Both the position numbers and the translations under genes were made by a program. This document shows, in pieces, positions 1,879-51,646 of a DNA stretch of 64,000 nucleotides; position 1 is the first letter of the stretch, and every line of letters begins with the position of its first letter. The stretch lies in assembly GCF_056712565.1 (NCBI RefSeq), contig NZ_CM160072.1; one strand, given 5' to 3'. A model generated the notes under the pieces. That model was not told the DNA's origin and did no database searches. It saw only the letters and a program-made list of their open reading frames with translations.

Positions 1879-2664
1879 TTAGCGCACTAAATAACCGCCA
1901 TCAACCACTAATAAATGTCCGTTGACATAATTCGATGCCGGACTTGCGAGGAATACGGCTGCGCCCATTAAATCCTGAGTATCGCCCCAACGGTTTGCCG
2001 GAATATAATCAAGAACGCGCTGGTTAGTTTCTGGATTACTACGGGTCGCCAGAGTGATATCGGTAGCGTAATATCCCGGGGAAATACCATTCACCTGAAT
2101 ATTATATTGACCTAATTCATCGCAATAGGCTTTGGTGAATCCGGCAAGAGCATGTTTAGTGGCAGAATAAGCCGGTGACCATTGACCACCTGAGTAAGAG
2201 AACAATGAACAGATATTAATGATTTTACCGCTTTTCTGCGGGATCATAATTTTTGCAGCTTCATAGCTTAACTCGAATGCGGCGGTAAGGTTCACGTCAA
2301 TCATCGGATCCCAGTCGGCACGCCCGAAGTCCAGCACCTTATTCAGCTTACATATACCGGCATTGTTAACCAGAATATCGACGGTACCGAAACGCTCACA
2401 GCAGGCAGCGATAATCTTCTGCGGTGCGCCTTCTGCGGTGATATCCACCTGCATGAAGTCCACTTCAACACCCTGTTTTTCAATCATTTCCTTTGTTTCG
2501 CCGTTATCTTTGACGAAACTTGGAATAAAGACATTTGCGCCAGCCTTGGCCAGCGCCATGGCAAATGCCTGGCCTAATCCGCTATTCCCGCCGGTAACAA
2601 TTGCTGTTTTACCTTTCAGGGAGAAAAAATCCATTGAGAACGCATTGAGAGATTCGATTGACAT
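1879..2664 (-). CDS. ygcW: short-chain dehydrogenase/reductase (KduD-like)
   Basis: TGxxxGxG Rossmann motif (TAIVTGGNSGLGQ) near the N-terminus. Start placed at ATG 2664 (MSIESLNAF...) with GGAG Shine-Dalgarno; the longer ORF to 2739 reads through an upstream hairpin and U-run and is rejected. Confidence 0.8.
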   Translation of the reverse strand: MSIESLNAFSMDFFSLKGKTAIVTGGNSGLGQAFAMALAKAGANVFIPSFVKDNGETKEMIEKQGVEVDFMQVDITAEGAPQKIIAACCERFGTVDILVNNAGICKLNKVLDFGRADWDPMIDVNLTAAFELSYEAAKIMIPQKSGKIINICSLFSYSGGQWSPAYSATKHALAGFTKAYCDELGQYNIQVNGISPGYYATDITLATRSNPETNQRVLDYIPANRWGDTQDLMGAAVFLASPASNYVNGHLLVVDGGYLVR

Positions 2665-2687
2665 AGTTAGCTCCAATTTCCGTAAGG

Positions 2688-2765
2688 CAAAAAAAAAGAA
2701 AGGTAACTTCCCCCGCGAGAGGGAAGTTACCTTTCTCATTATCTCTGGTAACTGGAGATAATTTT
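2688..2765. promoter_or_regulatory. two adjacent palindromes in the ygcW / yqcE divergent intergenic region (candidate operator or attenuator)
   Basis: Perfect 15-bp inverted repeat gaaaggtaacttccc / gggaagttacctttc (2698-2735) flanked by an A-run (2688-2697). Second 8-bp-arm palindrome attatctc...gagataat at 2740-2764. Confidence 0.4.
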
Positions 2766-2982
2766 TAGCATAAGGGCATAACTGCTAATGTGATCGTAAT
2801 CACAGAGTGATGTTCGTATTATCAAATAGTTTTAAAAAGCAGAAGCGTGATTACTCTCACACAACACCTTTTCTTTCCATGTTATTTCTTATTGCAATTA
2901 CTAGAGACCTGAGAAAAGTAATCCACCTGAAAGGGCGGCTTACTTTTCTCTTTTTTTTGTCTATTACAAATGGGAATACGAT

Positions 2983-4260
2983 ATGCAACACAACTCATAT
3001 CGCCGTTGGATAACCCTCGCGATAATTAGTTTTAGCGGCGGCGTTAGTTTCGACCTGGCTTATTTACGTTATATTTATCAAATTCCCATGGCAAAATTTA
3101 TGGGATTCAGCAATACCGAGATAGGTTTAATAATGAGTACCTTTGGTATTGCGGCCATTATTTTCTATGCCCCTAGCGGCGTTATTGCCGATAAATTTTC
3201 ACACCGCAAAATGATTACTTCCGCGATGATCATTACCGGATTACTGGGCCTGATAATGGCAACATATCCACCACTGTGGGTAATGCTCTGTATTCAGGTC
3301 GCCTTTGCGATAACGACGATTTTAATGCTGTGGTCGGTGTCGATTAAAGCCGCATCGTTGCTGGGCGATCATAGCGAGCAAGGGAAAATTATGGGCTGGA
3401 TGGAAGGGCTGCGCGGCGTCGGTGTAATGTCGCTGGCGGTGTTTACCATGTGGGTCTTTTCTCGCTTTGCACCGGATGACAGCGCCAGCCTGAAAACGGT
3501 CATTATTATCTATAGTGTGGTTTACATTCTGCTGGGCATTTTGTGTTGGTTTTTTGTTAGCGATAACAACAATCTGCGCAGTGCCAATAACGAAGAAAAA
3601 CAGTCATTCCAGCTTAGCGACATCCTGGCCGTTTTGCGCATCAGCACCACCTGGTATTGCAGCATGGTGATTTTTGGTGTCTTCACCATCTACGCCATTC
3701 TGAGTTACTCCACCAACTATCTGACCGAAATGTACGGCATGTCACTGGTGGCAGCGAGCTACATGGGGATTGTGATCAACAAAATCTTCCGCGCGTTATG
3801 CGGCCCACTTGGCGGCATTATCACCACCTACAGCAAAGTGAAATCCCCTACCCGCGTGGTCCAAATCCTTTCCATCATCGGTTTGCTGGCATTGACAGCC
3901 CTGCTCGTTACGAACTCTAACCCGCAATCGGTCGCGATGGGGATTGGCTTGATTTTATTACTGGGATTCACCTGTTACGCCTCACGCGGGCTGTATTGGG
4001 CCTGCCCTGGCGAAGCGAGAACACCGTCTTACATTATGGGCACCACGGTAGGTATTTGTTCGGTGATTGGATTCCTGCCGGATGTCTTCGTTTACCCGAT
4101 TATCGGCTACTGGCAAGACACCCTGCCCGCTGCAGAAGCCTACCGCAACATGTGGCTAATGGGCATGGCGGCGCTTGGCATGGTGATCATCTTTACCTTT
4201 TTGCTGTTCCAAAAAATTCGTACTGCTGATAGCGCCCCCGCAATGGCTAGCAGCAAGTAA
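2983..4260 (+). CDS. yqcE: MFS family transporter
   Basis: 425 aa, multiple hydrophobic helices; synteny with K-12. Confidence 0.85.
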   Translation: MQHNSYRRWITLAIISFSGGVSFDLAYLRYIYQIPMAKFMGFSNTEIGLIMSTFGIAAIIFYAPSGVIADKFSHRKMITSAMIITGLLGLIMATYPPLWVMLCIQVAFAITTILMLWSVSIKAASLLGDHSEQGKIMGWMEGLRGVGVMSLAVFTMWVFSRFAPDDSASLKTVIIIYSVVYILLGILCWFFVSDNNNLRSANNEEKQSFQLSDILAVLRISTTWYCSMVIFGVFTIYAILSYSTNYLTEMYGMSLVAASYMGIVINKIFRALCGPLGGIITTYSKVKSPTRVVQILSIIGLLALTALLVTNSNPQSVAMGIGLILLLGFTCYASRGLYWACPGEARTPSYIMGTTVGICSVIGFLPDVFVYPIIGYWQDTLPAAEAYRNMWLMGMAALGMVIIFTFLLFQKIRTADSAPAMASSK

Positions 4261-4286: not shown

Positions 4287-5765
4287 ATGTCGAAAAAATA
4301 CATCATAGGGATTGATGGCGGAAGTCAGAGCACAAAAGTGGTGATGTACGATCTGGAAGGTAATGTGGTTTGCGAAGGCAAAGGCTTATTGCAGCCGATG
4401 CACACGCCAGATGCCGATACCGCAGAACATCCTGACGACGATTTATGGGCATCATTATGCTTTGCCGGCCACGATTTGATGAGCCAGTTTGCCGGGAATA
4501 AAGAAGATATTGTCGGCATTGGCCTGGGATCCATCCGTTGCTGCCGTGCGTTATTGAAAGCCGATGGCACGCCTGCTGCGCCGTTGATTAGCTGGCAGGA
4601 TGCACGCGTAACGCGTCCCTACGAACACACTAATCCTGACGTGGCATATGTCACCTCTTTTTCGGGTTATCTGACGCACCGTTTAACGGGCGAATTTAAA
4701 GATAATATCGCCAACTATTTTGGTCAGTGGCCGGTGGATTATAAGACCTGGGCATGGAGCGAAGATGCCGCGGTAATGGAAAAGTTTAATATCCCCCGCC
4801 AGATGCTTTTTGACGTGCAAATGCCGGGCACCATTCTTGGGCATATCACACCACAAGCTGCGCTGGCGACACATTTCCCGGCTGGGCTGCCGGTTGTTTG
4901 TACCACCAGTGATAAACCGGTAGAAGCTCTGGGAGCCGGGTTACTGGATGATGAAACGGCGGTAATTTCTCTTGGCACCTATATCGCGTTAATGATGAAC
5001 GGCAAAGCACTGCCGAAAGATCCGGTCGCGTACTGGCCGATTATGTCTTCTATTCCGCAAACATTGCTGTATGAAGGTTACGGTATTCGCAAAGGCATGT
5101 GGACGGTGAGCTGGCTGCGCGACATGTTAGGCGAGTCGTTAATTCAGGATGCCAAAGCACAGGATCTTTCACCGGAAGATTTGCTCAACAAAAAAGCGTC
5201 TTGCGTGCCACCTGGTTGTAATGGGCTGATGACGGTGCTGGACTGGCTGACCAATCCGTGGGAACCGTACAAACGCGGAATTATGATCGGCTTTGATTCC
5301 AGTATGGATTACGCATGGATATATCGTTCGATACTGGAAAGCGTGGCGCTGACGCTGAAGAATAATTACGACAATATGTGTCATGAAATGAATCACTTTG
5401 CAAAGCATGTGATCATTACTGGCGGCGGTTCGAACAGCGATCTGTTTATGCAGATTTTTGCCGACGTGTTCAACCTTCCGGCACGCCGTAACGCCATTAA
5501 CGGTTGTGCAAGTCTGGGGGCAGCGATTAATACGGCGGTAGGTCTGGGGCTATACCCGGATTACGCAACGGCTGTCGACAAAATGGTTCGCGTGAAAGAT
5601 ATCTTTATGCCTGTTGAGAACAATGCCAAACGCTACGACGCGATGAATAAAGGCATTTTCAAGGAGTTAACCAAACATACTGATGTAATCCTGAAAAAAT
5701 CGTATGAAGTGATGCATGGGGAATTGGGGAATGCGGATTCGATCCAGAGCTGGTCGAATGCGTAA
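4287..5765 (+). CDS. ygcE: FGGY-family carbohydrate kinase
   Basis: 492 aa; strong Shine-Dalgarno (aggag) upstream; synteny. Confidence 0.85.
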   Translation: MSKKYIIGIDGGSQSTKVVMYDLEGNVVCEGKGLLQPMHTPDADTAEHPDDDLWASLCFAGHDLMSQFAGNKEDIVGIGLGSIRCCRALLKADGTPAAPLISWQDARVTRPYEHTNPDVAYVTSFSGYLTHRLTGEFKDNIANYFGQWPVDYKTWAWSEDAAVMEKFNIPRQMLFDVQMPGTILGHITPQAALATHFPAGLPVVCTTSDKPVEALGAGLLDDETAVISLGTYIALMMNGKALPKDPVAYWPIMSSIPQTLLYEGYGIRKGMWTVSWLRDMLGESLIQDAKAQDLSPEDLLNKKASCVPPGCNGLMTVLDWLTNPWEPYKRGIMIGFDSSMDYAWIYRSILESVALTLKNNYDNMCHEMNHFAKHVIITGGGSNSDLFMQIFADVFNLPARRNAINGCASLGAAINTAVGLGLYPDYATAVDKMVRVKDIFMPVENNAKRYDAMNKGIFKELTKHTDVILKKSYEVMHGELGNADSIQSWSNA

Positions 5766-5810
5766 GTGAGGAAGGCCGGGCGGGAAACTGCCCGGCATGA
5801 ACATACCTGA

Positions 5811-5900
5811 ATGGTTATCCCCGCTGACGCGGGGAACTCATATCCGGTTTTTGCTGGTGGGCCGCGCCGTTCGGTTTATCCCCGCTGGTGCGGGGAACTC
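5811..5900 (-). CRISPR. vestigial type I-E CRISPR array: two repeats and one 32-nt spacer
   Basis: Repeat 5872-5900 cggtttatccccgctggtgcggggaactc has one mismatch to the E. coli I-E repeat (reverse complement of GAGTTCCCCGCGCCAGCGGGGATAAACCG). Degenerate repeat at 5811-5839. Spacer 5840-5871 is 32 nt. Confidence 0.8.
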
Positions 5901-6238
5901 TCTAAACATAACCTATTATTAATTAATTATTTTTTAAGCCAGTCACAATCTACCAACTTTACAGTATCACACAAACAACACATCCATTATGTTAAAGAGC
6001 ACTTAATCCATTGATTAAAAAGATAAATATTTAAAATAACTCTATTCAAACTAAAATCTACCAAACTTTACCGCAATAATTTTCACTCCAGCGAAAAATT
6101 AACGCCACAGAATTTGTAGAGAATGATAATGATTAGTCCAGAATGGGCAAAATGGAGGTTTTTCAGAGGCGACAAAGAATATAAATGAGTAGAAGTCTTT
6201 ACAGATTCCACCCATTTATAACGCTTATAAATGTTTAA
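5901..6238 (-). promoter_or_regulatory. AT-rich CRISPR leader adjacent to the leader-proximal repeat
   Basis: About 340 bp of AT-rich non-coding sequence directly abutting the intact repeat, with the degenerate repeat at the distal end. Confidence 0.55.
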
Positions 6239-6910
6239 TCAGGCAATATTCAAATATTTATGTGTCTGCATCGACAAACGCCAGTTGCGCGCAATGCAGG
6301 TATCGATACATAAACGCGTAGCATCTTCCTTCTGGCTAATTGGCTGAAGTGCAATGACTCGCGGTTTATCATCGGTCAGCGTCGCCAGCAATTCGTCCAG
6401 TGCTTCAATATCACGTACGCGTCCCACTGGATGCTTGATTTCGTTGGCTCGCTCCAGGGCTTGCGACAATACTTCATAGCCGCCGCGCATGTTCAGCTTT
6501 GGCGATACGGTAACCCAGGTATTCGGTGTGCAGCGTACCTCATGAGTACCACTGGTTTCGATCTGGCAGCTAAAACCGTTCTTTTCGAGCAGGTCAGTCA
6601 GTGGCAGCAAATCATGAATGCAAGGCTCACCACCCGTAATCACCACGTGACGCGCGGTGTATCCCTGACGGCCAATGACAGCCAGCAAATCTTCACTGCT
6701 CGCCGCCCCCCACTTATCACTCTCTTTGGTCTTCGCCAGAATGCTGAAAAGGGAGACTTCCCGATCCTCAAGCTTTTCCCAGGTGTGTTTGGTGTCGCAC
6801 CAGGCACAGCCAACCGGACATCCCTGTAAACGAATAAAAATGGCGGGGACGCCGGTAAAGTAACCCTCACCTTGCAGGGTCTGGAACATCTCGTTAATCG
6901 GGTACTGCAT
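6239..6910 (-). CDS. queE: 7-carboxy-7-deazaguanine synthase (radical SAM)
   Basis: 223 aa with CPVGCAWCDT cysteine motif; synteny. Confidence 0.9.
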   Translation of the reverse strand: MQYPINEMFQTLQGEGYFTGVPAIFIRLQGCPVGCAWCDTKHTWEKLEDREVSLFSILAKTKESDKWGAASSEDLLAVIGRQGYTARHVVITGGEPCIHDLLPLTDLLEKNGFSCQIETSGTHEVRCTPNTWVTVSPKLNMRGGYEVLSQALERANEIKHPVGRVRDIEALDELLATLTDDKPRVIALQPISQKEDATRLCIDTCIARNWRLSMQTHKYLNIA

Positions 6911-7082: not shown

Positions 7083-7691
7083 ATGTTTAGAATATTCATC
7101 GCGTTTATATTTATTTTCAATTTATCAGGTTGCGGTTATAACGATATTCAAACCTATGATGAACAGGTTAATGCCTCCTGGTCAGAAGTATTAAATCAAT
7201 ATCAACGTCGCACCGATCTTATTCCTAATCTTGTCGCTAGTATTAAAGGTTACTCCAGCCATGAACAAGAGGTACTAGAAGCCGTAACATTGGCACGTAG
7301 TCAGGCTAATCGCGCCAGTAGCGATCTTCAGAAAACTCCGGGAGATGAACAAAAATTACAAGCCTGGCAACAGGCGCAGGCGCAGGCGCAGGTGACTCGC
7401 ACTCTCGGGCAGTTAACGATTATTAGTGAGCGTTACCCTCAGTTAAAGGCTCAAGAGCTCTATCAAAACTTAATGGTACAGCTCGAAGGAAGTGAAAATA
7501 GAATTGCCGTTGCGCGAGGAAGATATATTAAAGCCATTGAACAATATAATGTCACTATCCGCAAATTCCCCGCTGTATTAACCGCAAAGGTCATGGATTA
7601 CACACCAAAGAAAAATTATTTGCCGGATGATGTCACCGCAGTAAGTAAAGCCCCAACAATAGATTTTAGCCAGAATGCTAATGCTCATTAA
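7083..7691 (+). CDS. LemA-family lipoprotein
   Basis: 202 aa; N-terminal lipobox (FNLSGCGY). Sequence resembles LemA-family proteins, which commonly sit upstream of TPM-domain genes. Confidence 0.75.
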   Translation: MFRIFIAFIFIFNLSGCGYNDIQTYDEQVNASWSEVLNQYQRRTDLIPNLVASIKGYSSHEQEVLEAVTLARSQANRASSDLQKTPGDEQKLQAWQQAQAQAQVTRTLGQLTIISERYPQLKAQELYQNLMVQLEGSENRIAVARGRYIKAIEQYNVTIRKFPAVLTAKVMDYTPKKNYLPDDVTAVSKAPTIDFSQNANAH

Positions 7692-7704
7692 GCGGGGACG
7701 TTCT

Positions 7705-8598
7705 ATGCGAAATTTTATCTTCCTTATGGCTTTCTTCTGTTCATCTGTGTTTGCTACACAAATTCCAGTACCTGAATCACCCAGGTATGTGAATGACTTA
7801 ACCGGCACATTAACAAACAGCGAAGTAAACACCCTGACCAACCAGATTAAAGCCCTGACGCAAAAAAACCACGCACAGTTGGTCGTGTTAGTGGTTGATA
7901 CAACAGGCGATGAAACCATTGAGCAGTACGCAACGCGGGTATTCGATAGCTGGAAACCGGGTGATAAAGACCGTGATGATGGCGTTCTACTGTTAGTCGC
8001 CTGGCAGGATCATACCGTGCGTATTGAAATCGGTTACGGGCTGGAAGGTATTATTACGGATGCACAGTCCGGGAAAATTATTCGCAACAGTATTATTCCG
8101 GCATTTAAAAAAGGCGACCTGGCTGGTGGTTTACAAAAGGGGATCAACGATATTGAAAGTCGCCTGACGGGGAATAATTCAGCAACGATAACACCGACCG
8201 ATCACCCTTTGTCCTTTAGCGGTTGGTGGGCTTTATTAGTCTGGGCGATAATACTGACGTTTATTTCTGCCAGAGGATATATCAAAACGTTGGGAGTAAT
8301 TTGCTTCGCAGCCATTGTACTGGCCTTTGTTTTACCTATAGCAGGTTTCAGCGGAAGCTGGGGAGTACTCACAACATTACTCTGCTTCGCCACACCGTTT
8401 CTGGCAGTTGCCATCGCTTTTACCCCCTTCGGCAAAAAGGTTCGGGATTCGATGCGTGATGCCAACCAGCCATCACGCCATACAAGAAGCAATTCTTCCT
8501 CCCACTATTCATCATCGTCATCCTCTTCATTCGACAATGACAATTTTAGCGGTGGTGGCGGTTCATCTGGTGGCGGTGGCGCTTCCGGGCGCTGGTAA
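7705..8598 (+). CDS. TPM-domain (YgcG-family) membrane protein, paralog 1
   Basis: Signal peptide, TPM-like core (AQLVVLVVDTTGDETIEQYATRVFDSWKPGDKDRDDGVLLLVAWQDHTVRIEIGYGLEG), C-terminal TM segments and Gly/Ser tail ending GGGGSSGGGGASGRW. Alternative start at 7675 overlaps lemA. Confidence 0.8.
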   Translation: MRNFIFLMAFFCSSVFATQIPVPESPRYVNDLTGTLTNSEVNTLTNQIKALTQKNHAQLVVLVVDTTGDETIEQYATRVFDSWKPGDKDRDDGVLLLVAWQDHTVRIEIGYGLEGIITDAQSGKIIRNSIIPAFKKGDLAGGLQKGINDIESRLTGNNSATITPTDHPLSFSGWWALLVWAIILTFISARGYIKTLGVICFAAIVLAFVLPIAGFSGSWGVLTTLLCFATPFLAVAIAFTPFGKKVRDSMRDANQPSRHTRSNSSSHYSSSSSSSFDNDNFSGGGGSSGGGGASGRW

Positions 8599-8612
8599 CA
8601 AAAGGAATTGAT

Positions 8613-9761
8613 ATGCGTATTTTTCTCTTACTTCTGATGCTATGCGGTTTTCAGGTATTCGCTGAACGATTGCCTTCAGTGACTGACTTAACCGGGACAT
8701 TAACGACAGAAGAACAAAGTGCTTTAAATCAACAATTACAGACTCTCGAGCAGCAAAACCACTTCCAGGTGGCCGTGTTGGTTACGCCGACAACAGGGGG
8801 CAAAAACATTAAACTTGCAGCCTCGCAGAGATACGGGGTATATCACTGGAAACCCGTTGGAGAGAAGCGATATGGCGAAGGTATTTTAATTCTCGTCGTT
8901 TGGCCGGAAGGGCTGGCGTCAATGAAGATTGGACATGGACTGGAACAGATGTTGCCGCCGGAACAAGCTGCGCAAATTGTTCGTTACCATATGCAGCCAG
9001 AATTCGAAAAAAACAATCTCTTTGCTGGATTAACGGGCGGAATTGAAAGCATCGCACAGTTTACCCATATCAAAGCGAACCTTAGCCCTTTGGATGCTTT
9101 AGCCAATCATCTGTTTGCTAATCCGCAACTTTCGCTGCCATGCCTTGCCTGGACAGTGCTGATGATCGTTGCCATCATTGTCCTCTGGCGATTTACCAGC
9201 CGTCCAGGACCTGGCATATGGATGATATCAATGATTACACCTACGGTCTGGTTTTTCTGCTTTCAGGACGATGTCATCATTCGGCGGGTGTCGGTCGTTT
9301 GTTTTAGTTTATTTTTCGCAGCAATCTGCTGGCAGCGTCTCGCAGTAGTTTTTAATATGTGCCGCGTATTTCCTATGATGCTGGCCCCAAAAAATAAAAA
9401 CGCGAAAGTGAAAAAACAAAAGAAGACTCCGCAAGTTCGTGAATCAGGACGAAATTCATTGTTTGTCGTGATGCTGATAATTATTGTGGGATGGTGCCTG
9501 GTGTTCGCCAGTAATAAAGATATTGCATTCATCTCAACAATTATTGGGTTAATTGATCATTTTATCGGCCCAATAACCATTGCTGGCATCGTTCTGCTGA
9601 TCATTGTGGCCAAATTTACTGGCAATCTTAAGCTGGGGTCAGGAGAAAAAAGCAACAGGAAAACGGGGAATCGTAATGCTCATTCTCGCTCTTCGTCGAG
9701 AAATTCTTTCCGCGGTGGTGGCGGTTCTTCAGGAGGCGGCGGTTCATCCGGCCGTTGGTGA
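8613..9761 (+). CDS. TPM-domain (YgcG-family) membrane protein, divergent paralog 2
   Basis: 382 aa; diverged TPM-like core, extended membrane region, same C-terminal tail (...GGGGSSGGGGSSGRW). Confidence 0.75.
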   Translation: MRIFLLLLMLCGFQVFAERLPSVTDLTGTLTTEEQSALNQQLQTLEQQNHFQVAVLVTPTTGGKNIKLAASQRYGVYHWKPVGEKRYGEGILILVVWPEGLASMKIGHGLEQMLPPEQAAQIVRYHMQPEFEKNNLFAGLTGGIESIAQFTHIKANLSPLDALANHLFANPQLSLPCLAWTVLMIVAIIVLWRFTSRPGPGIWMISMITPTVWFFCFQDDVIIRRVSVVCFSLFFAAICWQRLAVVFNMCRVFPMMLAPKNKNAKVKKQKKTPQVRESGRNSLFVVMLIIIVGWCLVFASNKDIAFISTIIGLIDHFIGPITIAGIVLLIIVAKFTGNLKLGSGEKSNRKTGNRNAHSRSSSRNSFRGGGGSSGGGGSSGRW

Positions 9762-9766
9762 TCGTA

Positions 9767-10660
9767 ATGCGCTTAATCTTTATTCTATTCACTTTGTGGT
9801 GCCTTCCTGGGCTTGCCCAGCAAATTGCTGTGCCGGAACTGCGCCAACAGGTGACCGATATTACTGGTACGTTAAGCACTTCTGAACAACAATCACTGAC
9901 ACAGCAACTGCAGGATATTACACATAAAACACGGGCGCAGGTCGCTGTATTAGTAGTGCCGTCCACCGGAGACGATTCCATTGAACAATATGCTACAAGG
10001 GTTTTTGATAGCTGGAAACTGGGAGATAAGCAGAGAAACGATGGTATTTTACTTCTGGTTGCCTGGGAGGATCATGCTGTTCGTATTGAGGTTGGCTACG
10101 GGCTGGAAGGGGTGGTTACCGACCTGCAAGCGGCGAAGATTATCAGGGATATATTGATCCCTGCCTTCAAAAGTGATGACCTGATGGGTGGATTAACACT
10201 GGCAAGCGAAAATATCGGCGCGCTTCTGTTGAATGGTGAATTACCGGAAGACAGGGGGGATTATTACAGTATCAATCCCCCTATTCCATTATCGCTTGCT
10301 GTAATTATATTGCTGGCGGTACTTTCATATTTTATTGTTTTTACCGATCCGTCGAATTTACCCTGGATCACTCTCACTGGCGCCATTTACGGGATGGTAT
10401 TCCTCTATGTTGCCGAGCCAGGACCATGGACCAATTTAATCGTTGCCTGCGGTATGTTAACGCCTTTTGCGATCGTACCACTGGTTGTTTTTTGGCTTAT
10501 CGTCAATAAAAAGCTACGCGCCAAATACAAAAAACTCAGTAAAGAAAGAGCTTCAAGAAAAGGTTCTTCTTCATCCTCTTCCGGTGGAGGCTCAAGTGGC
10601 GGCGGATTTAGCGGCGGGGGCGGTTCTTCTGGCGGTGGCGGCGCGTCCGGTCGCTGGTAA
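9767..10660 (+). CDS. TPM-domain (YgcG-family) membrane protein, paralog 3
   Basis: Closely parallels paralog 1 (IEQYATRVFDSWK, LLLVAWEDHAVRIEVGYGLEG), ends ...GGGGSSGGGGASGRW. Alternative start at 9755 overlaps the previous stop. Confidence 0.8.
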   Translation: MRLIFILFTLWCLPGLAQQIAVPELRQQVTDITGTLSTSEQQSLTQQLQDITHKTRAQVAVLVVPSTGDDSIEQYATRVFDSWKLGDKQRNDGILLLVAWEDHAVRIEVGYGLEGVVTDLQAAKIIRDILIPAFKSDDLMGGLTLASENIGALLLNGELPEDRGDYYSINPPIPLSLAVIILLAVLSYFIVFTDPSNLPWITLTGAIYGMVFLYVAEPGPWTNLIVACGMLTPFAIVPLVVFWLIVNKKLRAKYKKLSKERASRKGSSSSSSGGGSSGGGFSGGGGSSGGGGASGRW

Positions 10661-14762: not shown

Positions 14763-14833
14763 TGAATTGTCCTGAAAATTGCGGGTCCGTCAGGTGTAAA
14801 CCTGTGACCAGAATAGAAGTGAGTTAGTAACAC

Positions 14834-15169
14834 CTACCCAATCAGCACGTTAATTTTGGCTTTAATGAGTTGTAATTCCTCTGGGGCAACTGTTCCTTTC
14901 TTCGTTGCTCCTCTTGCCCGCCAGGCGATACTTTTTACCTGATCAGCTAACGCTACGCCATCACGTTCCTGACCGGATAGAACAACTTCGAACGGATATC
15001 CTTTTGATTGCGTTGTACAAGGAACACACAGACACATACCTGTTTTGTTGTTGTACATGAACGGACTCAGGACAACAGCCGGACGATGTCCGGCTTGCTC
15101 GCTACCTTTTGTCGGGTCAAAATCAACCCAAATCAGATCGCCCGTATCGGGTACGTATCGGCTTACCAT
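14834..15169 (-). CDS. mazF: toxin MazF (mRNA interferase)
   Basis: 111 aa, [35 protein letters not shown]...; start overlaps mazE stop. Confidence 0.93.
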   Translation of the reverse strand: MVSRYVPDTGDLIWVDFDPTKGSEQAGHRPAVVLSPFMYNNKTGMCLCVPCTTQSKGYPFEVVLSGQERDGVALADQVKSIAWRARGATKKGTVAPEELQLIKAKINVLIG

Positions 15170-15417
15170 TACCAGACTTCCTTATCTTTCGGCTCCCCCC
15201 AGTCGATATTCTCGTGGAGGTTTTCCGGCGTGATGTCGTTGACCAGTTCAGCAAGCGTAAATACGGGCTCTTTACGCACTGGCTCAATAATTAATTTGCC
15301 ATCCACCAGGTCAATCTTCACTTCATCATCAATATTCAGATTGAGCGCCTGCATTAACGTAGCCGGGATCCGCACCGCCGGTGAATTTCCCCAACGCTTT
15401 ACGCTACTGTGGATCAT
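15169..15417 (-). CDS. mazE: antitoxin MazE
   Basis: 82 aa, [27 protein letters not shown]... (AbrB/SpoVT fold). Confidence 0.93.
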
Positions 15418-28189: not shown

Positions 28190-28232
28190 AAAGCAACCTC
28201 AATAAGAAAAACTGCCGCGAAGAATAGCAGGA

Positions 28233-28600
28233 ATAAAAAAAGGGAGCACTGTATTCACAGTGCTCCCGGTTCGTTTCGCAGCATTCCGGCTACTTTTGTT
28301 GCTCCCTGCTCATCCTTGACAACTTTTCCTCTGGCCTTGCGGCCAATCGTTCATCCTGAACTATTGCTTCCTGCTCACACCACCCCGATGTGATACTTCA
28401 TCCTGAAGTGTTCCTGGCCTTCCTGACCCACCGAATCATCCTGACCGGTTCTCATTCTCCATCCTGGAGGTGTCCTTTAACGCGTCCTGCGTCATCCTCT
28501 TCGCTTCATCCAGAAGCCTTTCCCTGAAACACCATCCTGGTGTGTCCTTCAGAAGTGTCATCATCCTGATGTTCACTTCGTTGTCTGACTCCCTGTCGAC
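28233..28600 (-). ncRNA. csrB: CsrB small RNA (CsrA-sequestering)
   Basis: More than a dozen catcct(g) motifs on the + strand (CAGGAUG/AGGA on the transcript). 5' end reads GUCGACAGGGAGUCAGACAACGAAGUGAACAUCAGGAUGA on the minus strand. Terminator hairpin gggagcactg...cagtgctccc plus U-run at 28233-28266. Confidence 0.9.
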
Positions 28601-51349: not shown

Positions 51350-51426
<77 letters not shown>

Positions 51427-51459
51427 ATTAAAATTTGATGAAGTAAAGCAGTACGGTGA

Positions 51460-51536
<77 letters not shown>

Positions 51537-51569
51537 ATCAAAATTTGATGAAATAAAGCAGTACGGTGA

Positions 51570-51646
<77 letters not shown>

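Follow-up and report, generated by a model that had tools for sequence, protein, structure and literature searches.

What does a CRISPR locus of two repeats and one spacer record, and is it what remains of a system whose cas genes decayed? The question arises from a 64-kb stretch of Escherichia coli DNA (hereafter the window), in which an earlier note, made from the letters alone, had described an orphan type I-E remnant with a leader between ygcE and queE. We are highly confident in the following answer. [quoted passage not shown]

The single-array CRISPR-II locus

The locus contains two repeats of 29 nt enclosing one spacer of 32 nt (Table 1), with the coordinates and sequences that had been reported for them. 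In a repeat search the two copies are 61 nt apart from start to start, and both this period and the spacer length fit a type I-E array. The leader is on the right side of the array, so the crRNA sense is the minus strand. Aligned with the published E. coli species consensus for CRISPR2 repeats, CGGTTTATCCCCGCTGACGCGGGGAACWC (PMC3737337), the leader-distal repeat has three mismatches and the leader-proximal repeat two, and the consensus repeat found no match in 100 shuffles of the window, in agreement with the original assignment to type I-E. The extent of the array is also as first described, since a scan of all 64 kb with the K-12 consensus, allowing up to 8 substitutions, found no further repeat copies.

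Relative to the K-12 consensus repeat, the proximal copy has a single mismatch, which lies in the loop, and the distal copy has four, in the loop and in the last 8 nt (crRNA sense), which read ATAACCAT where ATAAACCG is expected. Folding retains a 7-bp stem and tetraloop in both repeats, at −15.1 kcal/mol for the distal copy, −14.3 kcal/mol for the proximal copy and −15.1 kcal/mol for the consensus. Differences in sequence are confined to the loop or to the 3′ tail of the terminal repeat, and a Cas6e-type hairpin is present in each. The distal repeat had been called degenerate; its final 8 nt do deviate, but it is a conserved terminal repeat common to the CRISPR2.2 arrays of K-12 and O157 rather than a decayed one.

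Table 1. Features of the ygcE-queE region, in window positions; sequences are given for both strands where available.
Feature	Position	Strand	Details
ygcE, FGGY-family carbohydrate kinase	4287..5765	+	left boundary gene, 3′ end at locus
ygcE stop-to-array interval	5766..5810	.	GC-rich hairpin, stem 5775-5781 / 5790-5796
Leader-distal (terminal) type I-E repeat	5811..5839	-	plus-strand ATGGTTATCCCCGCTGACGCGGGGAACTC; crRNA sense GAGTTCCCCGCGTCAGCGGGGATAACCAT
Predicted mature crRNA, 61 nt, if Cas6e is supplied	5819..5879	-	5′ handle AUAAACCG (8 nt) + 32-nt spacer + 3′ hairpin GAGUUCCCCGCGUCAGCGGGG (21 nt)
Single spacer, 32 nt	5840..5871	-	plus-strand ATATCCGGTTTTTGCTGGTGGGCCGCGCCGTT; crRNA sense AACGGCGCGGCCCACCAGCAAAAACCGGATAT
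Leader-proximal type I-E repeat	5872..5900	-	plus-strand CGGTTTATCCCCGCTGGTGCGGGGAACTC; crRNA sense GAGTTCCCCGCACCAGCGGGGATAAACCG
CRISPR2.3-type leader, full length	5901..6238	-	338 bp, AT-rich, abuts queE 3′ end
Interval matching the IHF-binding site (leader −9 to −35)	5909..5935	-	positions by PMC10011333
queE (formerly ygcF), 7-carboxy-7-deazaguanine synthase	6239..6910	-	right boundary gene, 3′ end at leader

The leader has a GC content of 29%, against 51% for the window, and in full-length alignments it is 95.9% identical to the CRISPR2.3 leader of K-12 and 96.2% identical to that of O157, which bears out the description of an intact, AT-rich leader of about 340 bp. Leader 2.3 is reported to be much the same across E. 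coli strains, those that lack cas-E among them (PMC3903273). The placement of the array between ygcE and queE is likewise as had been proposed, with the open reading frames and the RefSeq annotation of the type strain ATCC 11775 in agreement. The interval that separates the array from the stop codon of ygcE has the same position as the CRISPR2.2 flank of K-12 and O157. Its hairpin, at 5775-5796, was not called as a terminator in a consensus scan because it is not followed by a T run, and predicted promoters and terminators across 5700-6300 were no more numerous than in shuffled sequence. Two open reading frames that overlap the array and leader (5797-5922 and 5811-6014) were rejected as spurious, as they lie inside the repeats and the AT-rich leader and are unannotated in the RefSeq records seen. 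In none of the carriers of the array that we looked at does RefSeq annotate a CRISPR feature at the ygcE-queE site, and an Rfam search of 5500-6500 returned no CRISPR-DR match at E≤1, the models for such short (29-nt) repeats being low in power.

We identify the feature as the E. coli CRISPR-II locus, of type I-E, in the single-array form CRISPR2.2-3, a kind that has already been published. Arrays of CRISPR-II between ygcE and ygcF, now queE, were reportedly described by Diez-Villasenor et al. in 2010 and by Almendros et al. in 2014. The locus takes the form either of a pair of arrays, CRISPR2.2 and CRISPR2.3, separated by about 0.5 kb, or of a single CRISPR2.2-3 array (PMC3903273; PMC4489801). 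In alignments with K-12 and O157:H7, CRISPR2.3 is the counterpart of the proximal repeat and the leader, and the CRISPR2.2 terminal end that of the distal repeat and the ygcE-side flank. The site, the repeat family, the leader (~96%), the terminal repeat and the ygcE-side flank are all shared with the CRISPR-II loci of K-12 and O157. The window differs from them in having one spacer only, without the CRISPR2.2 spacer and the segment of about 0.5 kb between the two arrays, and in a single SNP within the leader's IHF interval. With the K-12 CRISPR-I and CRISPR-II arrays (cas-EK) it has in common the I-E architecture, the repeat hairpin and the 32-nt spacer length. We met no evidence against the identification of the locus as CRISPR-II.

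Cas genes in the type strain and in a sister clone

The earlier note had recorded that the window holds no cas genes. This is true, but the window reaches only ~4.3 kb to the left of ygcE, and the cas site, between iap and cysH, is ~15 kb past its left edge; the statement is therefore uninformative as to whether the array is orphaned. We read the orphan status instead from the type strain ATCC 11775 (= DSM 30083), from which the window differs over 26.3 kb by 3 SNPs and one 6-bp indel (99.97% identity) and at the locus itself not at all (100%). In this genome the interval is iap-hok-cysH and lacks both cas-E genes and a CRISPR2.1 array. The spacer carriers CFT073, IHE3034, Nissle (EcN), E5 and B20123 have the same iap-hok-cysH arrangement without cas-E, so that the suggested likeness to the minimal CRISPR2 state of lineages without type I-E cas genes is well founded. 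Such strains have been described as having a “similarly reduced repeat number”, the median number of CRISPR2 repeats being 2 where UPEC genes are plentiful (PMC4489801), and E. coli with I-F systems or without CRISPR-Cas belong mostly to phylogroup B2 (PMC12736100). Set beside the orphan CRISPR2 arrays of E. coli without cas-E, which are mostly B2/ExPEC, the locus has the same features, a cas-free iap-cysH interval as in ATCC 11775 and two CRISPR2 repeats in the genome. Nothing substantive sets it apart from them; our additions are the origin of the spacer in a phage and the finding that some carriers of the array are cas-positive.

A check of the rest of the genome for cas3 and cse genes had been advised. 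ATCC 11775 has no I-E cas genes at iap-cysH, and it has a type I-F cluster between clpA and a tRNA-Ser gene. This comprises cas1f, cas3f, csy1, csy2, csy3 and cas6f with an array of its own, csy2 being a pseudogene with an internal stop. Judged by this matching genome, the array can be called an orphan with respect to I-E cas genes, a status not readable from the window, but cas genes of another type are present. With cas1f, cas3f, csy1, csy3, cas6f and an I-F array at hand, one could suppose that the I-F system services the I-E array by cross-talk, in which case the array would not be functionally orphaned. We consider this extremely improbable. Cas6f and the Csy proteins are specific for I-F repeats, and the csy2 gene is interrupted. 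The I-F repeat is, moreover, a different sequence of 28 nt (PMC12736100). The I-F system is accordingly non-cognate, and it is not expected to service I-E repeats.

A different picture of the same array is offered by R12, a rat strain that carries the spacer together with a complete cas3-cse1-cse2-cas7-cas5-cas6e-cas1-cas2 operon and a CRISPR2.1 array of 19 repeats and 18 spacers. Its ygcE-queE interval has the same length as that of the window, and the array is identical at 90 of 90 positions. Using as a query the contiguous 22 kb of R12 from CRISPR-II to cse2, we found six genomes (R12, MP1, LI60C3, SCU-111, FDAARGOS_1373 and 2A) that match at 100%, in a single piece and at the same length; the matches that follow do not exceed 96.7% identity and extend over a longer stretch of DNA. 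By this query, cas-E is therefore present in at least 6 of the 230 spacer-bearing genomes, and all six have only this one CRISPR-II spacer, against 18 spacers in CRISPR2.1. The presence of an identical one-spacer array in cas-positive genomes argues that the minimal state is not simply the result of decay after cas loss. The word remnant was for this reason too strong: cas-E is indeed absent from the genome that matches the window, but the same array is found in six genomes that have it.

The cas operon of R12 is the O157 (cas-EO) variant, with a Cas1 that is 98.7% identical to that of O157 and 84% identical to that of K-12, and a Cas6e for which the corresponding values are 99.1% and 27%. The repeats of R12 are of the “CRISPR-A” type, and its CRISPR2.1 leader is close to that of O157.

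A lambdoid phage as the probable source of the spacer

Comparison of the spacer with phage, plasmid and E. coli sequences, the check originally proposed for it, was only partly productive. BLASTN searches of the INPHARED phages and PLSDB plasmids gave partial, non-significant matches only (best E 0.9 and 0.2). Of the 5,426 complete E. coli genomes searched, 230 have the spacer, in each case as one copy that is 100% identical and sits at CRISPR-II, and there is no second match in the set; a self-target or a target in cas genes is ruled out by this absence of any match beyond the array. A scan of species-representative genomes also gave 0 matches, a weak result in that the array itself was not returned either. 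One of the plasmid matches, from Klebsiella (H38, 25/30), lies in a RusA gene and can be recognized in hindsight as a distant homologue of the target described below.

We then scanned IMG/VR with patterns of the spacer in which every third base was left free, in each of the three reading frames, which allows for synonymous divergence. One frame gave a single match and the other two gave 0. The matching protospacer, aacggTgcggcccaccagcaaaaaccggatat, is at 2113-2144 of a prophage contig and is identical to the spacer at 31 of 32 positions, including 9 of the 10 positions that the pattern left unconstrained. The sole mismatch is at spacer position 6, a position that is left unpaired in Cascade and is without effect on interference (PMC4678831). 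The 5′ flank of the protospacer is ATG, which, like AAG, is a consensus interference-proficient PAM (PMC6568314), and the G of this flank is equivalent to the final base of the repeat, in keeping with type I-E integration (PMC10011333; PMC3737337). Both the match (31/32) and the ATG flank are present in all eight copies of the prophage that were fetched; the strains of assemblies GCA_001606755.1 and GCA_002460535.1 are examples of its lysogens.

The protospacer lies in a gene for a 119-aa RusA-like Holliday-junction resolvase (PHROG 140, E=1e-24; Pfam RusA). On the 3′ side of rusA are genes for a DNA methyltransferase of 635 aa, for antiterminator Q and for a terminase, with a portal gene beyond the terminase, and upstream are a CI-like repressor and KilR. 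This gene order is that of a typical lambdoid prophage. Identical copies of the RusA protein are found on ~103 NCBI contigs labelled E. coli, and one member of its cluster is from Salmonella; when the prophage segment was compared by megablast with the complete E. coli genomes, no close relative was returned, despite the presence of this RusA on about 100 draft contigs. On the strength of the protospacer and its PAM, the spacer can be read as the record of an acquisition from a lambdoid phage, at a rusA gene in the late-regulatory region, and the notion that the lone spacer documents a past acquisition has thus gained a concrete source. Orphan CRISPR4 arrays of type I-F likewise persist in E. 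coli without their cognate cas genes. Their spacers target cas-F genes (PMC12736100), unlike the spacer studied here, which targets a phage rusA gene and has no cas match in the 5,426 genomes.

The PAM also bears on the module that made the capture. CAT, the equivalent of ATG, is the commonest PAM of leader-A/cas-EO arrays and was never sampled by the Cas1-2 of K-12 (PMC3737337). The adaptation module of K-12 uses AAG and was not seen to sample ATG, so that the flank of the protospacer, like the cas operon of the sister clone, points to acquisition by a cas-EO module. In R12, spacer 5 of CRISPR2.1 matches the same prophage at 29 of 32 positions, the three mismatches all falling at third positions of codons. 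The target of spacer 5 is ~420 bp upstream of the rusA protospacer and on the same strand, with ACG as its flank in the prophage of today. That two spacers were independently directed at one 0.5-kb region of one phage family is strong support for a real immune history. Their arrangement is compatible with primed adaptation, except that the spacer 5 target is at present flanked by ACG.

These observations suggest a sequence of events for the lineage of the window. A locus laid out as terminal repeat next to ygcE, one spacer, leader-proximal repeat and full CRISPR2.3 leader would have received its spacer from the rusA gene of a lambdoid phage, beside an ATG PAM, most likely through an O157-type (cas-EO) Cas1-Cas2 such as is still present in the sister clone. 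The operon from cas3 to cas2 and the CRISPR2.1 array would then have been lost from iap-cysH. In such a lineage the array is at most transcribed: with no Cas6e, Cascade, Cas3 or I-E Cas1-Cas2, it should be neither used nor extended, and we infer that it persists as an inert memory.

The array nevertheless appears to be usable in principle. The position of Cas6e cleavage follows an established type I-E rule, from which the ends of the mature crRNA in Table 1 are predicted. Were cas-EO supplied, the proximal repeat would give an intact 5′ handle and the distal repeat an intact 3′ hairpin. Because the degenerate tail of the distal repeat falls outside the mature crRNA, leaving handle and hairpin whole, the unit should be processable, with rusA next to ATG as its target.

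Possible reasons for the short array and its persistence

If the array was short while cas genes were still present, something other than cas loss may have stopped its growth, and the leader offers a candidate. The IHF site of the leader extends from −9 to −35 (PMC10011333), and mutation or deletion of this site, for which the IHF consensus is WATCAANNNNTTR, abolishes acquisition (PMC5224486). In the corresponding interval of the window, position 5928 (leader −28) is T where K-12 and O157 have G, the sole difference from these two in the first 60 bp of the leader. The change converts the best IHF core, in the crRNA sense, from AATCATTAATTAA to AATAATTAATTAA, so that the C of the ATCA core is gone. 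T at −28 is shared by all five further carriers that we looked at (ATCC 11775, IHE3034, CFT073, ATCC 25922 and R12). The SNP could explain why CRISPR-II ceased to grow while CRISPR2.1 reached 18 spacers, and the coincidence is suggestive. One might go further and propose that the SNP weakened the putative IHF site, that CRISPR-II stopped taking spacers with cas still present, and that it was orphaned only later by cas loss, an order of events that would agree with the six cas-EO-positive genomes and their 18 CRISPR2.1 spacers beside one in CRISPR-II. We consider this unlikely, for the AT-rich leader has several other matches to the IHF consensus at 7 of 9 positions, and the correlation comes from a single clade and so from one evolutionary event. 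Deletion, too, can keep arrays short. The single-array form is either ancestral or the product of recombination between repeats, and in the latter case a crossover between the CRISPR2.2 terminal repeat and a CRISPR2.3 repeat would have fused the two into a hybrid distal repeat and cut out the CRISPR2.2 spacer, the ~0.5-kb segment and whichever older spacers CRISPR2.3 had. The distal repeat is identical to the K-12 CRISPR2.2 terminal repeat at 27 of 29 positions, but the two positions on the spacer side are the TC of CRISPR2.3 type in place of the AT of the K-12 CRISPR2.2 terminal repeat, a weak hint that it may be such a hybrid. The ygcE-side flank, the same as in K-12 and O157, and the complete absence of the inter-array segment from the window would also be expected of this collapse, which we regard as possible and propose only tentatively: two nucleotides are weak evidence of a hybrid, and the reverse course, in which an insertion divided an originally single array in the K-12 and O157 lineages, fits equally well. 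As to the inter-array segment of K-12 and O157, we rejected the idea that it is a decayed copy of leader 2.3, as it has no significant similarity to leader 2.3 or to the rest of the window.

A separate matter is whether the locus has been kept by selection. Compared with R12, the window has 0 differences in the 90 positions of the array and 4 in the 338 of the leader, against 7.4-8.0% of third-codon positions in ygcE and queE (Fisher p=2e-7); relative to K-12 and O157, the leader is ~4% divergent and third-codon positions are 9-14% divergent. Array and leader are thus conserved well above the synonymous sites that flank them, a suggestive pattern that would be unexpected for purely neutral junk. 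Because ygcE and queE both end at the interval, the leader is not their promoter, and strains have been shown to exchange cas-E modules (PMC3903273). One could therefore imagine that the orphan array and leader are held by selection, either as a stand-by memory for a re-acquired cas-E module or for a role independent of cas. The part of the leader covered by a 60-nt search is, however, missing from ~1,350 of the 5,426 genomes, among them SCU-204, which has a sugar-kinase/porin island after ygcE, and the locus is consequently dispensable. The low divergence of the leader could reflect constraint, but a recombination tract or a local mutation bias could also produce it, and the spacer has neither a cas target nor a second match in complete E. 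coli genomes. We judge maintenance by selection to be decidedly improbable. A version that joins the two proposals, in which the −28 SNP shut off integration in the ancestor of ST73, ST95 and R12/MP1 and the array was then retained, frozen and conserved, as a ready anti-lambdoid guide for a cas-EO module present or re-acquired, also seems to us improbable. Our preferred reading is still that of an inherited memory that has become inert in the lineage of the window.

The locus and its minimal state without cas genes are textbook E. coli CRISPR biology, and our analysis leaves that picture unchanged. What it adds is incremental, namely the protospacer, the cas-positive carriers, another spacer directed at this phage, the leader SNP within the IHF interval and the I-F system elsewhere in the genome. 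The protospacer gives a concrete source for the frozen spacer of ExPEC and probiotic strains, including CFT073, IHE3034, Nissle, ATCC 25922 and the type strain. Since two-repeat arrays such as this one go unannotated in RefSeq, surveys undercount them. The R12/MP1 clone, finally, provides a natural cas-positive control with an identical array, in which both the usability of orphan memories and the effect of the leader SNP may be addressed.

Conservation and distribution of the leader

Across comparisons with R12, K-12 and O157, we find that the non-coding leader and array are 2–6 times more conserved than the third-codon positions of the flanking genes ygcE and queE, and the start of neither gene falls at this interval. 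Selection, a recombination tract or mutation bias may each account for this conservation. The leader-proximal 60 bp are without a match in 1,351 of 5,426 complete E. coli genomes, about a quarter. In SCU-204, one such genome, an island encoding an aminoimidazole-riboside kinase and a carbohydrate porin lies directly after ygcE, and repeats are absent from the ~1.5 kb examined downstream of that gene.

A second spacer against the same prophage

The CRISPR2.1 array of R12, a cas-positive strain with an identical one-spacer array, contains a further spacer (spacer 5) with a 29/32 match in the lambdoid prophage that holds the protospacer of the window's single spacer in rusA. Its target lies in a DUF968/RecA-dependent-nuclease gene, on the same strand as the rusA protospacer and ~420 bp upstream of it; the flank there is ACG, which is not a consensus PAM. 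Within CRISPR2.1, spacers 2 and 6 share one sequence, which indicates an internal duplication. Neighbouring rusA in the prophage is a gene for a 635-aa protein with matches to both the cytosine-methyltransferase (PF00145) and Dam (PF05869) families; the protein seems to be a fusion of two DNA methyltransferases.

Neighbouring and related loci

At the cas site, strains with the O157-type operon (O157, R12) carry a hok/gef toxin gene between cysH and cas3, and cas-less strains keep it at the deletion junction in the order cysH-hok-iap; in K-12, which has the cas-EK variant, no hok/gef gene is annotated at the cysH-cas3 site. The interval between clpA and tRNA-Ser in the type strain ATCC 11775, whose genome matches the window, is occupied by a type I-F CRISPR-Cas locus. 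Because its csy2 has an internal stop and is annotated as a pseudogene, this system, too, may be defective.

In the window, the genes to the right of queE are one of the LemA family and then three with TPM domains; in K-12 and R12, yqcG-ygcG stands at this place instead. Relative to ATCC 11775, the window has a 6-bp insertion in the LemA gene (7371-7376) and a SNP at 7678; the first TPM gene is an incomplete pseudogene in the RefSeq annotation of ATCC 11775 but an uninterrupted 307-aa ORF in the window.

Coordinates of the features discussed and of other features in the window
Feature	Location	Strand	Remark
Leader	window 5901-6238		
LemA-family and TPM-domain genes	window 7083-10660		
First TPM gene	window 7675-8598		
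mazEF toxin-antitoxin pair	window about 14828-15411	-	upstream of relA; ordinary known feature
CsrB sRNA	window 28232-28591	-	ordinary known feature
GcvB sRNA	window 46821-47026	+	ordinary known feature
Three tandem tRNA-Met(CAT) genes	window 51350-51646	+	ordinary known feature
Methyltransferase-family gene	L004 (prophage segment) 2265-4172		
CRISPR2.1	L019 (R12 region) 9465-10591		
Spacer 5 target	L005 (same prophage) 9787-9818		
hok/gef, sequences compared	L001 3854-4006; L019 460-612; L025 1962-2114; L026		
Type I-F locus, ATCC 11775	L028, NZ_CP033092.2 3126000-3138000		cas1f, cas3f, csy1, csy3, cas6f and 328-bp array
SCU-204 region with the island	L020, NZ_CP053251.2 3669769-3672839		

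Annotation of one-spacer arrays

Larger arrays at the ygcE-queE site do carry RefSeq annotation. None of the RefSeq records examined for spacer carriers has a 'CRISPR' feature at the two-repeat array, and the smallest number of spacers that a recent survey lists for this region is 2 (PMC12736100). Arrays with a single spacer thus systematically escape notice.
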